This document shows positions 32,756 to 40,301 of a DNA stretch of 64,000 nt, piece after piece. The DNA lies in NCBI GenBank assembly GCA_963771045.1, contig CAVYRW010000004.1, positions 32,001 through 96,000 on the forward strand, written 5' to 3'. The DNA comes from Waddliaceae bacterium (GTDB lineage Bacteria > Chlamydiota > Chlamydiia > Chlamydiales > SLFE01). Numbering within the stretch: the stretch's first letter is position 1; each line of letters begins with the position of its first letter. The notes under the pieces were generated by a model. The model made no database searches and was not told the origin of the DNA. It saw only the letters and a program-made list of their open reading frames with translations. The translations under genes and the position numbers were made by a program.

Positions 32756-34546
32756 TTAGCTTGAAGAAGATCCGGAAAACAGCGATGCCAAATTATCCGA
32801 AGAAGGTTTGGCATTTTCCCCTCCGCTTGTGTCGCTGGCGGCCCTTGCAGCCAATGATCTTGGAATATTGAATGTGAAAGTCAGTTCCATTCCGTTTGGA
32901 GTTTCATGTCTTGCGACTTTAAGAGGAGGATAGGTTGAGTCCGGCTTTGTTAAATCTATTGCCCGCGGACGTTTTTTGCCTTTAGAGGATATAGGTGGCG
33001 GAGCGATTGCAGGTTTCGGTGATTGATTGGAAGTGGGTGAAAAATAACTCAAAATGGTTTCATTGTGTTGGGAGGGTTTTTGCACAGCCGGAGCTTTTTT
33101 CTTGCCGGCTATGACAGCGGGCGGCAGCGAAGGCGCAGCCTCTTTTTCAAGAGCGGGAACAAGCGGCGGTATATCATCTTTGGTCACCACCATGTAATTC
33201 TCGGGTTTGAATGTTCCACCCCGTTCCCGCACCAGCTGGCCTGTACTCAAAATGGGATGTCCGGAAAGGAGAGCTTTGCTTAGCTTCTTCTTATCGACTC
33301 CATCGACAAAACGTTTCCAAACTTCGTAGTTCACCCTTACGTCTCCGAGAGCTCTGTGGGCATGATCTTCAGCGATTCCCATCCTTCCACGGATTTCCTG
33401 AAGTTTGTGGAACCCTTTGTATTGCGGTTTACAACCTGCATAGATATGTCTTGAGAACGCGAGGGTGTCCACGCTTGTCCACCACTTGGGACTCATTCCG
33501 AACCTTTCGCATTCAGCTTTATAAAGGCGCAGGTCATAGCCCCAAATATTATGTCCTGCCAGGACAGCCACTTTTTTCACTGTAGAACCGATTTGATGGT
33601 CCATCCACTTTTCAAAACTAGTCCAGACTGTTTTAAAATTTAATTCTCCCCCGGTTTTTTGTTTAAATTCCTTAGCGGCCTCGCGGATCATCTGTTCTGT
33701 AATTCCCGTTAGTCTGACGACGATTTCCGGTATTTGGATGCCATCATCAAGCCCGGGATCGATCAGGGTGTTAAAGGTCGCCCCGGTTGAAGGAATAAAT
33801 GCGGCCAGTTCGATGGCTCTGGGAAGGGGACCGGGATTCCTTTTAGTCGGGAATAAGCCGGTGGCTTCAAAATCAAAGAAAACAAGCTCTGCCTCTCCAC
33901 TGCCTTTGATAATCGCTGCGGCTGCTCTCACCGGATGTTCACGGGGAGGGAGAACCATGGCATCTGCCAGTTTTTCTCGATCAGCGCCTTCGGTCATTTT
34001 GTTGAATACGCCAATGAGCATCTTAACGTCATTGCAGGCATCGTGTTGGGGAAGGTGCTTTACCTTATACTTTTGGCAAAGGGCGGCAAGGCTTTTCTGC
34101 CCTTTCGGTATTCCAAGAGCCCCCGCAAGATAGAGCGTGCAGAATGGTTTCCAGTATTTTGGAATGGCTTCCTTAATCCTCGCGCATTCATTAGCAAGAA
34201 TGGGCCAGTCATGCTTATATATGTTATGTCCGACAATAACTGCGAACCGGTTGCCGTCAAGGCCCTGATTGACAAACTCTTTTAGCCGAGGCCAGACTTT
34301 TTTCCACTTGCGTTTCTTCACTTCTTTTTGTCCCGGCTGAAAACTGGCTTCATCTTCTTTATGCCTGAGCTGCTTTGGGAGTTTGACATGGGCTTCAAAG
34401 AATCTTTCTCCCTCTTTTCTGGAAGGATCACAGACGCAGATTTGTTTAATAAAACACTGGGGCTCTCCCCGATCTACCGGGACGTGGCTGACTTCCAAGT
34501 CGGTAAAATAGATCTGAGGTGTGAAGCTGGTATTTATTGGCTGCAT
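32756..34546 (-). CDS. Tandem DEDDh 3'-5' exonuclease protein with low-complexity basic tail
   Basis: Domain 1 FTDLEV / GHNIYKHD / HDACND; domain 2 FFDFEATG / GHNIWGYD / HRALGD; Pro/Ser/Lys-rich C-terminus. Confidence 0.82.
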   Translation of the reverse strand: MQPINTSFTPQIYFTDLEVSHVPVDRGEPQCFIKQICVCDPSRKEGERFFEAHVKLPKQLRHKEDEASFQPGQKEVKKRKWKKVWPRLKEFVNQGLDGNRFAVIVGHNIYKHDWPILANECARIKEAIPKYWKPFCTLYLAGALGIPKGQKSLAALCQKYKVKHLPQHDACNDVKMLIGVFNKMTEGADREKLADAMVLPPREHPVRAAAAIIKGSGEAELVFFDFEATGLFPTKRNPGPLPRAIELAAFIPSTGATFNTLIDPGLDDGIQIPEIVVRLTGITEQMIREAAKEFKQKTGGELNFKTVWTSFEKWMDHQIGSTVKKVAVLAGHNIWGYDLRLYKAECERFGMSPKWWTSVDTLAFSRHIYAGCKPQYKGFHKLQEIRGRMGIAEDHAHRALGDVRVNYEVWKRFVDGVDKKKLSKALLSGHPILSTGQLVRERGGTFKPENYMVVTKDDIPPLVPALEKEAAPSLPPAVIAGKKKAPAVQKPSQHNETILSYFSPTSNQSPKPAIAPPPISSKGKKRPRAIDLTKPDSTYPPLKVARHETPNGMELTFTFNIPRSLAARAASDTSGGENAKPSSDNLASLFSGSSSS

Positions 34547-34629
34547 GAGAGTCCTCCTGTGAAGAGATATTGTGAATCTATAAAGACCGGAACATATTTC
34601 AAAAATTAATTTGATGTAAACAAATATTT

Positions 34630-39600: not shown

Positions 39601-40301
39601 AATTTCGAAAAATGCTTGAAGAGATGGTTTTTTTGAGCCGGGCAGAAGATGTAAAAATTGGAGAAAGGAACAGAGTATGGGAGCAGCGTTTCAAAACAGT
39701 GCTGAATAATCGCATCAAACAGTTGATCCCTAATCAAACTGATTGGAGGAGGAAAATTCAAAGAGATATTGCCATGAAGCTGATTGACTTTGCCAGAAAC
39801 CGGCAAGACACGATCGTCCTTGTTCCGGACGCGGCAAGACGGTTTTTGGCTTACATGGAACGGGTCCCCCTCGGCATCAGTATCACTGACTTTCGCAAAA
39901 CGGTTGCAGACGCTGCCTACCGGGCACGTTGCGAGATCCTTTGCGGCCTTGACCCGGAGTGGAAGGGTAAGTTTTGCGAATATCTCGACACAAAATTGTT
40001 TTCAGTTTTATCCGAAGAGTCGAGAAATCGGCTTATTGAGAGCGGAATCGTCACACACGATACGAATTGGAAGGAAGAAATTCACAACATTCACTTCATT
40101 TTTCTGGTGAATCCGGGAACGGCGCAAATCGAGCTTGCCAGATTCAATCCGGATACGAAGGAAGTGACGTTTATGAGTCAGGACGACTGGTTTCCTCGAA
40201 AGTCAGGCGGCCATGGCTACTGGCTTTTTCCCGATAATTACCGTGTATGGCCCGGGCAGCCGCTATTCAATGTCAGAAAACATATCGAAGCGTTTATGTA
40301 G
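36696..40301 (+). CDS. Large hypothetical protein (1201 aa), possible papain-like Cys protease effector
   Basis: Long ORF with SD GGAGG; basic N-terminal clusters; LRQAKAGTCFAT, PCHVF and HDTNW motifs. Confidence 0.7.
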   Translation: MTQQIRDCYQSDVNAVKALTKTKKRKREEEKRVENQALSRLLGEPPRKRPAILRRLNPVIEMQREDTFSLGLQASMKFQKQLCEENGYCVVHAEEKEEDVCGVRLKRHQYREIEDICQKKDPKIGSQLFEIYQILESRGAAKKNEGQAILEFAREIIREVPDLEAEDMEIDESEETLGKYREAVEKYLDVLPIDPTEENIDEFAIAMQKAVLHAANEDMEISDDDEVNPIDLAQQRLGYLLLAAQNDLSLCARSLYSLDGLSSRVAEILEEAAARVEDHSARHKSVAIQSSDEAMFHKMSLELAGVLLLDTGSLNFGVLEAAVEILIPDSLKETAAMDNLWIVMIEFAQNPLLWQQIAEVRPPKSKDVPSDAAIRTCFSLENDQPITRRHAQLFVLSALLGHLRQAKAGTCFATACLIKTRLYHPHMVIDDLAQLTEKGYIKRMLFKESRTFPFQARVSKEYLDLELKIDRAGRILSTKRYDLIPDRASEWPRPQRGMHLYDSPGIIAACRSMGLTDAREAVKSILDNLPEKFSVNDLLKLLAQHAYNRQESAPYLLRSQKQLTATQFLHKAQFAFGCQTNHPLHRAFEQVATTMVNYFGAQYMMPAWVFWTMKEVLEKADRGYSRAFQMKYKKLMEETFLPMITRMRYLYNHNLDKGKVLFGNGNYGIRESYFFGYQLCDSGLPKDFKYSTDLYNQYSHECSSISLERFKKFTPPTQWKLVDSEDEFRGFLKNVIAETVDYLKKISPTASERRQWAAVGCKMQQDISEPSFTKRIIFLLLGRGSDQKKEYDKNRFGIQFTPWQFRIGGDFNEVLKTYFGFGKSPAKLKKYNGTPKEVLTKCINYIKSQPLQIKETFDDSRSQIIVASPCHVFLMRPFEPTFKDAWESKVSTNDYILEHVEKPGLSIAGSRFNLRQRKEILSFVKNNMWATRYEEKDDWVRQQLTKTSKEMLDRKIAACPQLIDLSVEEFRKMLEEMVFLSRAEDVKIGERNRVWEQRFKTVLNNRIKQLIPNQTDWRRKIQRDIAMKLIDFARNRQDTIVLVPDAARRFLAYMERVPLGISITDFRKTVADAAYRARCEILCGLDPEWKGKFCEYLDTKLFSVLSEESRNRLIESGIVTHDTNWKEEIHNIHFIFLVNPGTAQIELARFNPDTKEVTFMSQDDWFPRKSGGHGYWLFPDNYRVWPGQPLFNVRKHIEAFM

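Follow-up and report, generated by a model that had tools for sequence, protein, structure and literature searches.

A conserved three-gene module of chlamydiae with nuclear-import-like tails, possibly directed at host chromatin

Three adjacent genes in a Waddliaceae bacterium, encoding a tandem exonuclease, a Clp-like AAA+ protein and a divergent protein of 1201 amino acids (aa), each carry clusters of basic residues in terminal extensions of disordered appearance, which raises the question of whether they form a functional unit and, if so, where its products act. The genes lie in a stretch of 64,000 nucleotides (positions 32,001 to 96,000 of the forward strand of contig CAVYRW010000004.1, assembly GCA_963771045.1), referred to here as the window. 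A sequence-only reading of this DNA had proposed a co-regulated nuclease, unfoldase and protease acting on host chromatin or nuclear nucleic acids, an interpretation that our analysis partly supports. The trio is a conserved, co-inherited module and not a chance neighbourhood, since its members co-occur and keep their order across distant families. This co-occurrence and gene order, together with the insertion site, the catalytic motifs and the tail motifs, were observed directly and are the basis of the argument that follows.

Distribution and setting of the trio

A survey of 400 scored Chlamydiota genomes (one more was unscorable), with thresholds set to exclude housekeeping paralogues, placed the Clp-like subfamily in eight genomes from six families, namely the source genome G000 (2.57 Mb, 5 contigs, 90.6% complete), G011, G023, G041, G116, G199, G220 and G302. 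A DUF2709 gene in the window marks the source genome as chlamydial. The tandem exonuclease was present in seven of these (all except G011) and a full-length orthologue of the 1201-aa protein (E=0), hereafter called the protease, also in seven (all except G041); the protease profile matched 25 of the 400 genomes, the remaining 18 with partial matches to paralogues. All three genes occurred in six genomes, and neither the exonuclease nor the protease orthologue was ever found without the Clp gene. The exact order and orientation of the window are those of four genomes (G000, G116, G199 and G220), and the genes flanking the trio differ between families. In G041 the Clp and exonuclease genes stand together and the divergent slot is occupied by a C1B peptidase bearing a nuclear localization signal (NLS); in G011 one uncharacterised NLS-rich gene lies between the protease and Clp genes; in G023 the Clp and protease genes are together, with the exonuclease gene on a separate contig; and in G302 the three members lie on three contigs. 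Nine loci with a full-length protease orthologue, part of them the same DNA as loci counted in the survey, came from records of Waddliaceae, Parachlamydiaceae, Parachlamydiales and unplaced chlamydial metagenome-assembled genomes, with no cultured isolate among them: four held an intact trio, one the Clp and protease genes, three had no partner nearby and one was too short. Further records common to all three families suggest, indirectly, that two more trios exist. Chlamydial genomes were the only source of records with a full-length protease orthologue, and no copies of the family were found in plasmids and viral contigs. The homologues are thus both co-located and co-distributed across chlamydial genomes, as an island of the kind proposed would lead one to expect.

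The locus itself is arranged as follows.

32107..32658, plus strand: pdxT, left flank of the insertion site, outside the module (Pfam SNO; beside tauE in family-mates)
32756..34546, minus strand: tandem DEDDh 3'-5' exonuclease of 596 aa (Pfam RNase_T in two stretches, E 8.5e-25)
34630..36602, minus strand: Clp/Hsp100-derived AAA+ protein, frame-broken here and about 650 aa in homologues (below every Pfam and NCBIfam family cut-off; placed by alignment and by its own clade)
35250..35270, minus strand: break in the Clp reading frame, between the pore loop and the Walker B motif of the second AAA module (D2)
36603..36695, no strand: intergenic region between the divergent genes, each preceded by a ribosome-binding site of GGAG type
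36696..40301, plus strand: predicted papain-fold cysteine protease of 1201 aa, CT590 superfamily (invariant residues; fold of a compact homologue)
40329..41120, minus strand: tauE, right flank of the insertion site, outside the module (Pfam TauE)

The three open reading frames (ORFs), their orientation and the gaps of 83 bp (exonuclease/Clp) and 93 bp (divergent Clp/protease) are as the sequence-only reading had given them, and the divergent layout is kept among homologous loci, with gaps of 93–173 bp. In the intergenic regions a promoter scan gave no match, and neither a promoter or terminator consensus nor, by eye, a shared operator was seen. What had been overlooked is that the Clp gene is frame-broken in the assembly. 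Its start is the ATG at 36602, which has a ribosome-binding site and agrees with the starts of homologues; for these reasons the TTG at 36884 was rejected. The frame break near 35250–35270 is read through in 16/16 other aligned copies, a rough tblastn test found 11 of 60 conserved gene bins split across frames in the source genome, and pdxS (31207–32030) is also frame-broken, near 31927, where a closely related contig has one base fewer, which suggests an assembly error at that point. No related contig spans the Clp site; on the three preceding observations its break is probably an assembly error as well, and a true pseudogene is unlikely.

The trio occupies a block of 7.5 kb with a GC content of about 47%, against 44.6% for the contig. 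In the family-mates G005 and G004 pdxS/pdxT directly adjoin tauE, and in the same-genus genome G001 the sequence beyond tauE (172 bases) bears no resemblance to the end of the protease gene; as the site is empty in family-mates, the block was gained, or kept only, in the present lineage. No terminal repeats and no integrase gene were found within it, and mobile-element ends and a shared operator were likewise looked for and not found.

The three enzymes

Both domains of the window exonuclease keep D-x-E, D and H-x-A-x-x-D, and the full catalytic sets (D-x-E, D, H-x-x-x-x-D) are present in both domains of all 21 listed homologues, which identifies the protein as a DEDDh exonuclease. Its N- and C-terminal domains form two clades next to chlamydial DnaQ, the nearest NCBIfam model is chlamydial DnaQ (PRK06309), and two ordinary DnaQ-like genes remain separately in the source genome. 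The module enzyme shares its catalytic motifs with DnaQ-type exonucleases and differs from them in its two tandem domains and in a C-terminal tail, disordered-looking from about residue 450, which bears NLS-like motifs along with others resembling PCNA-interacting peptides (PIPs) and SUMO-interacting motifs (SIMs).

The Clp-like protein has two AAA modules and an intact D2, as in the class 1 Hsp100/Clp ATPases (ClpB, ClpC, ClpA, ClpV/TssH), and departs from them in almost everything else. Neither an N-domain nor a middle domain is present (17 aligned copies, typically of 635–690 aa; no PF02861 match). The first module (D1) is degenerate, the Walker B DE being absent in 17/17 and the Walker A lysine mostly kept, with its loss in the window copy; in D2, GPTGVGKT, GxPxGY, VVLxDExEK, MTSN, ELxGRF and FGxR, which cover Walker A and B, the aromatic pore loop, sensors 1 and 2 and the arginine finger, are conserved. 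No IGF/L loop was seen by eye in the alignment, and in a tree of D2 the Clp-like proteins form one clade (support 98/96) apart from ClpB and ClpC. We therefore rejected three identities: ClpB, since there is no N-domain or middle coiled coil, the D1 Walker B is lost and scores lie far below the cut-off (167 bits for TIGR03346 on the N-terminal piece, against 1232); ClpA or ClpC as a partner of ClpP, since N-domain and IGF/L loop are missing and the clade is separate; and ClpV/TssH, since there is no N-domain and the type VI secretion sheath gene VipB was not found in G000 at its 90.6% completeness. The housekeeping enzymes are not displaced, ClpB and ClpC both being retained in G000 and at least one of them in each of ten genomes checked. 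To judge from its intact D2, the protein would work like an Hsp100-type unfoldase; by analogy, we take it to resemble single-ring Skd3 (human CLPB) or the nucleosome-disassembling AAA+ proteins Yta7/ATAD2. The place of the N-domain is taken by a tail of 64–241 residues.

The 1201-aa protein had no sequence match in Pfam, NCBIfam, PHROGs or the PDB. Of 61 chlamydial genomes searched, 52 contain relatives, and further relatives come from several other phyla. Across 26 and 28 sequences with a mean identity of 17–18%, R-Q, G-x-C-F, H and D-x-N-W are invariant (Q405, C411, H871, D1122 and N1124 in the window), and their placement, with a Gln, a Cys at a helix start, a His before a strand and Asp/Asn at a strand end, is that of the papain clan; the predicted triad, Cys411-His871-Asp1122, is dispersed over 700 residues by large insertions. 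A full-length model (predicted local distance difference test score, pLDDT, 75.9) gave nothing in Foldseek, and its VIA-align matches (helical-bundle, cyclin-like and bromodomain-like) were not accepted, having Z<8. For the 490-residue core of a compact homologue (pLDDT 90) Foldseek again gave nothing. In VIA-align, 21 of 50 matches span this whole core with Z 5.1–6.8, and all but one are named papain-type enzymes; the exception is 9arc, which we take to be papain-type too. They include UfSP2 (Z 6.8, root-mean-square deviation, rmsd, 3.9, 174 aligned) and calpain 9 (Z 6.7, rmsd 4.5, 212 aligned), with UfSP, streptopain, ZUP1 and Mug105 among the others. Each Z is weak, and the fold assignment rests on the agreement of these matches with the catalytic motif set. 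We predict, from model and residues together, that the protein is a papain-fold cysteine protease, resembling the C78 (UfSP/ZUP1), calpain and streptopain enzymes in catalytic fold and triad and differing from them in the split triad and the want of a sequence-level match. With this, the nuclease, unfoldase and protease composition that had been proposed fits the catalytic motifs and the predicted fold.

The predicted protease is related to CT590. A core chlamydial member of the family, a 957-aa gene adjoining sdhCAB (L130:4844–7717), corresponds to CT590 by its position, its length and the insertion-site sequence RVQDL, as far as the accessible text on CT590 allows (PMC6686042). This core gene, like its counterpart in the source genome (G000 C5:26021–29026), keeps the full Q-C-H-D.NW set, so that a conserved 'hypothetical' protein is likely to be a cysteine protease. 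The same paper, in the part available, reports that loss of CT590 lowers C. trachomatis progeny by almost 2 logs at 24 h (PMC6686042), and the available text describes CT590 as hypothetical and does not call it a protease. The module copy shares the catalytic signature with CT590 and its expanded paralogues, but is about 200 aa longer, carries an NLS tail and a YxLRS loop, and forms its own clade in the protease tree (SH-aLRT 100; four rows were dropped for lacking a motif match). The family has no name and no Pfam model; its signature also appears in records of Puniceicoccales/Opitutales, Betaproteobacteria, Maioricimonas, Sulfidibacter and Myxococcota (L055, L057–L072, L081–L085).

Tail motifs and nuclear targeting

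All the basic clusters quoted in the sequence-only reading are present: GKKK at 481 and KGKKRPR at 522 of the exonuclease, RRSGRL at 46 through to RKRAR at 64–68 of the Clp protein, and KTKKRKR at 21 and PPRKRP at 45 of the protease. As evidence, the K[KR]x[KR] pattern on which that reading relied does not exceed chance within one genome, being found in 706 of 1864 ORFs (38%) of the source genome, in 183 of 309 ORFs of at least 500 aa and in 124 of 1854 adjacent ORF triples; because it is so common, it carries no weight alone. A real signal emerges only across homologues and with stricter NLS patterns. NLS motifs were found in 18 of 21 exonuclease tails (ELM-type patterns, last 130 residues; shuffle mean 4.7, maximum 13), in 15 of 18 Clp tails (three near-duplicates having been dropped from 21) against 2.3 in shuffles and 12% of genome ORFs, and in 14 of 19 protease N-terminal tails against 2.7. 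In the protease family they are far commoner in the module clade (15/18 representatives, partly overlapping the 19 tails, vs 18/117 other members). Classical NLS motifs are thus enriched over background, and recur in homologues, in tails of all three families, even though the tails cannot be aligned between homologues. The expectation that housekeeping relatives would lack such clusters holds for the N-termini of ClpB, ClpC and DnaQ, which have no NLS match, and fails for ClpC near its C-terminus, where there is one basic run. We consider nuclear targeting of the products probable.

Three stretches of the window carry the motifs that bear on what the products might do in a nucleus.

32948..33064, minus strand: exonuclease tail with PIP-like NETILSYF (495–502), NLS KGKKRPR (522–528) and SIM-like IDLT (530–533)
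36399..36530, minus strand: Clp N-terminal tail with acidic LKDFIV (25–30), HMGN-like RRSGRL (46–51) and a bipartite NLS (46–68)
38358..38372, plus strand: protease loop YLLRS (555–559), a candidate arginine anchor (conserved R558; coil in the model)

The Clp tails supply two of these motif types. A strict anchor pattern, YxLR or RRSxR[LI], occurs in 7 of 18 tails, whereas shuffles give 0.23 and 1.3% of the ORFs in the genome carry it; a loose version, set post hoc from the sequences, occurs in 11 of 18. The variants are RYDLRPR, RYPLRS, KYSLRPS, QYSLRS, RRSGRL and RRSKRL, with the class switching between orthologues. A scan of 1864 ORFs over their first 130 residues gave two matches of this kind, one being the RRSGRL of the window. 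That two unrelated anchor classes occupy the same tail position is the strongest hint of a nucleosome target. An acidic motif, L-x-D/G-F-I/V, likewise set post hoc, occurs in 10 of 18 Clp tails against 0.1 in shuffles, and resembles histone-chaperone patches. In the accessible parts of two papers, the chromatin-binding site of foamy-virus Gag, GGYNLRPRTY, has YxLR at its core and engages the nucleosome acidic patch by Tyr537 and Arg540 (PMC12125541), and RRSxR[LI] is the acidic-patch motif of HMGN (RRSARLSA), Dsup and Dot5 (PMC13347269). The Clp tails share with these acidic-patch binders the same short motifs in disordered tails; the difference is that here they sit on bacterial enzymes and that binding is predicted from sequence only. 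In the protease, the arginine at R558 is kept by 29 of 31 module-clade proteins within a surface loop that otherwise varies, and the loop pattern [YF]x[LF]R[ST] is found in 16/31 of these proteins vs 7/117 other members. Among 24 exonuclease tails (the 21 with two near-duplicates dropped and five added), a PIP-like core was found in 8, against 0.6 in shuffles, and SIM-like motifs in 5, against 0.16, by expressions set post hoc from the tails themselves; a bacterial clamp motif was found in 0/24. A further motif of these tails, L-x-L-x-F-[SDEKN], is mostly C-terminal and present in 7 of 24, against 1.25 in shuffles (P0032, P0034–P0036, P0041, P0042 and the G041 exonuclease).

The source genome has a type III export gate (FHIPEP/SctV match, E 1e-223). 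On a crude home-made measure of N-terminal composition, in which a value at or above the 75th percentile counts as high, 16 of 18 Clp and 18 of 19 protease N-termini scored high and core CT590-type copies low. Injection of the trio into the host is likely, because the module recurs in distant families and bears eukaryote-style motifs for nuclear import and nucleosome docking.

What the module may do

We propose that the trio is a nuclear toolkit, injected by type III secretion, whose members jointly dismantle host chromatin, and we give this reading about an even chance. Ser/Thr/Asn/Pro-rich N-termini would act as secretion signals, and the NLS tails would carry the products into the nucleus of the host. 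The Clp protein may dock on the H2A-H2B acidic patch by its YxLR or RRSxRL arginine anchor, grip histones with the acidic L-x-D-F-I patch that stands in place of the N-domain, and, with D2 as its single working ring and no ClpP partner, pull histones or other chromatin proteins off the DNA. The protease, for which a YxLRS loop would probably provide the tether, would cut histones or remove ubiquitin- or SUMO-type marks, and the double exonuclease, aided by its PCNA- and SUMO-binding-like motifs, would degrade DNA at forks and exposed ends. What the bacterium would be likely to gain is a shutdown of host transcription and replication and a release of nucleotides. More tentatively, and at somewhat less than even chance, we picture an injected chromatin-demolition machine built from three reworked enzymes of housekeeping derivation: an Hsp100 motor in which a histone-chaperone-like acidic patch and a viral or HMGN-style nucleosome anchor would replace the N-domain, cysteine proteases of a new family that would dock on nucleosomes, and a double exonuclease guided by PCNA and SUMO. 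The trio would appear to work like a set of nucleomodulins, and it does not qualify as a member of the ClpB, ClpA/C, ClpV or Dodola groups. Like chlamydial NUE and SinC and Neisseria App/MspA, its products are likely secreted, NLS-bearing and chromatin-aimed enzymes; they differ in being three co-inherited enzymes where the nucleomodulins are single proteins of other folds. App and MspA are, in the accessible portion of a review, histone H3 proteases (PMC7819608).

A number of observations weigh against this proposal. On the crude secretion measure no more than 3 of 8 exonuclease N-termini reach a high value, and CT590 was scored as not secreted in two assays (Table 1 of PMC13251465) and as inconclusive in earlier work (PMC3931295), according to the accessible parts of these papers. 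An AAA+ protein of 640 aa and a protease of 1200 aa would both have to refold and assemble after injection. Seven of 18 Clp tails lack even the loose anchor pattern, a strict PIP box is present in only 1 of 24 exonuclease tails, and the acidic, loose-anchor, PIP and SIM patterns share the post hoc origin noted above. The fold Z-scores of the protease are all below 8. Three of the nine protease loci have no partner nearby, G302 and G023 keep the genes apart, and related genomes are not independent samples. Thymidine kinase, present in 6 of 8 module genomes vs 37 of 61, is not enriched, which leaves nucleotide harvest without specific support; in G220 such a gene lies 1 kb from the trio (L101:3691–4293).

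Among the alternatives, the one that survives best, although we think it unlikely, keeps the products in the nucleus and gives them a regulatory role: the protease would act as a deubiquitinase or de-SUMOylase, the Clp protein would remove selected chromatin factors in the manner of a segregase, and the exonuclease would trim replication or repair intermediates, so that the host cell cycle is arrested. The best whole-domain fold matches do include UfSP2, UfSP, ZUP1 and Mug105, the PIP- and SIM-like motifs suggest action at forks and sites of repair, and bacterial deubiquitinases are papain-type cysteine proteases common in Chlamydia-like bacteria, according to the accessible text of a review (PMC13720258). 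However, calpain and streptopain tie with the ubiquitin-like-protein proteases in the fold match, no ubiquitin-binding element was identified, and the triad order Cys-His-Asp/Asn with its D.NW motif is unlike what we take to be the Asp-Pro-His box of UfSP. Separately, 7 kb from the trio the window encodes a candidate deubiquitinase, a 339-aa protein with an effector-like N-terminus (24633–25652, minus strand; Pfam Peptidase_C78, UfSP/ZUFSP, E 3e-15).

Chlamydial symbionts protect amoebae from giant viruses, and an injected trio might, to the benefit of the host, strip and degrade viral DNA, histone-wrapped genomes included, inside the nucleus or close to it. The patchy, mobile distribution resembles that of defence genes, and some giant viruses encode near-canonical H2A and H2B with acidic-patch residues. 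The motifs, though, are no less suited to host nucleosomes, PCNA and SUMO, and the sequences suggest no way of telling virus from host, so that we regard this role as quite improbable. A viral contig of 911 kb (L197:1369–2569) bears such near-canonical H2A and H2B genes with acidic-patch residues.

A system working inside the bacterium, in phage defence or nucleoid remodelling, with tails that bind DNA instead of importin, is very improbable. It would accord with the reported non-secretion of CT590 and the loss of progeny without it, in the papers as accessible, and an ATPase, a nuclease and a protease make up a familiar defence architecture. The anti-phage role that the sequence-only reading had offered as its alternative does find partial PADLOC matches (DolB, PDC-M37B and DEDDh), but these span a generic AAA or DEDDh core only, and the protease has none; the Dodola and PDC-M37 systems were rejected because the match is to the AAA core and no partner model was matched by the other two proteins. 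Moreover, the NLS spacing and the SIM-like, PIP-like and YxLR/RRSxRL motifs have no obvious bacterial use, there is no beta-clamp motif, and, as noted above, the full-length protease orthologues all came from chlamydial genome records and no family member was found in plasmids or viral contigs. Least probable of all is that three unrelated nuclear effectors merely travel together in an effector island, for although NLS-bearing effector-like genes (F-box/DUF4116, DUF2608, C1B peptidase) adjoin some copies and linkage alone can yield co-occurrence and correlated divergence (rho 0.78), the trio persists after separation onto three contigs in G302 and two in G023, its flanks differ between families, and the C1B peptidase (27/400 genomes) does not co-distribute.

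Several neighbouring genes deserve record. C1B (bleomycin-hydrolase-like) peptidases with added NLS tails are encoded at L165:5960–6664 (G000 C4:1643959–1644663) and L086:7526–8998; the G000 copy is split in two, and the G041 copy starts with VTRS, which we take to resemble a viral acidic-patch motif. As a regular substitute for the protease this peptidase was rejected, being adjacent only in G041 and differing in its spread. Directly downstream of the Clp gene, in the slot of the exonuclease, G011 and G054 encode an uncharacterised NLS-rich protein (L017:3307–5145; L088:1–1089) with C-x-x-C..H..N..N, HNH-like by eye, which had no library match and has relatives in 10 of 61 genomes. Proteins with F-box/DUF4116 and DUF2608 domains and basic, NLS-like N-terminal tails directly follow a trio at L041:2518–5484, and an NSF/Cdc48-like AAA protein of 909 aa with a basic, effector-like N-terminus is encoded in G054 at a distance of 6.5 kb from the Clp gene of the module (L088:10347–13076). 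In the window, a stretch of lower GC beyond brnQ holds an IS66-like transposase (by eye) and two ORFs for which no Pfam family exceeded its cut-off (44109–45506 and 42560–43964, minus strand).

The trio is a real, conserved three-gene module that is apparently undescribed so far. In the open-access literature we found nothing that describes the trio, calls CT590 a protease or presents a nuclear effector of the Clp ATPase kind; in the accessible text of the respective reviews, 'acidic patch' and 'AAA' each have 0 occurrences in one on nucleomodulins (PMC7819608), 'bacterial' has 0 in one on viral acidic-patch binders (PMC9040877), and a 2026 account of bacterial deubiquitinases names no such family (PMC13720258). 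As a by-product, the CT590 family acquires a likely protease activity with named catalytic residues. Were the chromatin-directed reading true, the module would, as far as we could find, have no precedent either as a bacterial exploitation of the nucleosome acidic patch or in having a Clp ATPase for a nuclear effector, extending acidic-patch hijacking from viruses to bacteria and repurposing an Hsp100 motor for nucleosomes, and the trio might serve as a marker of chlamydiae that attack or dwell in the nucleus. It offers a concrete, testable system by which environmental chlamydiae may attack host chromatin.

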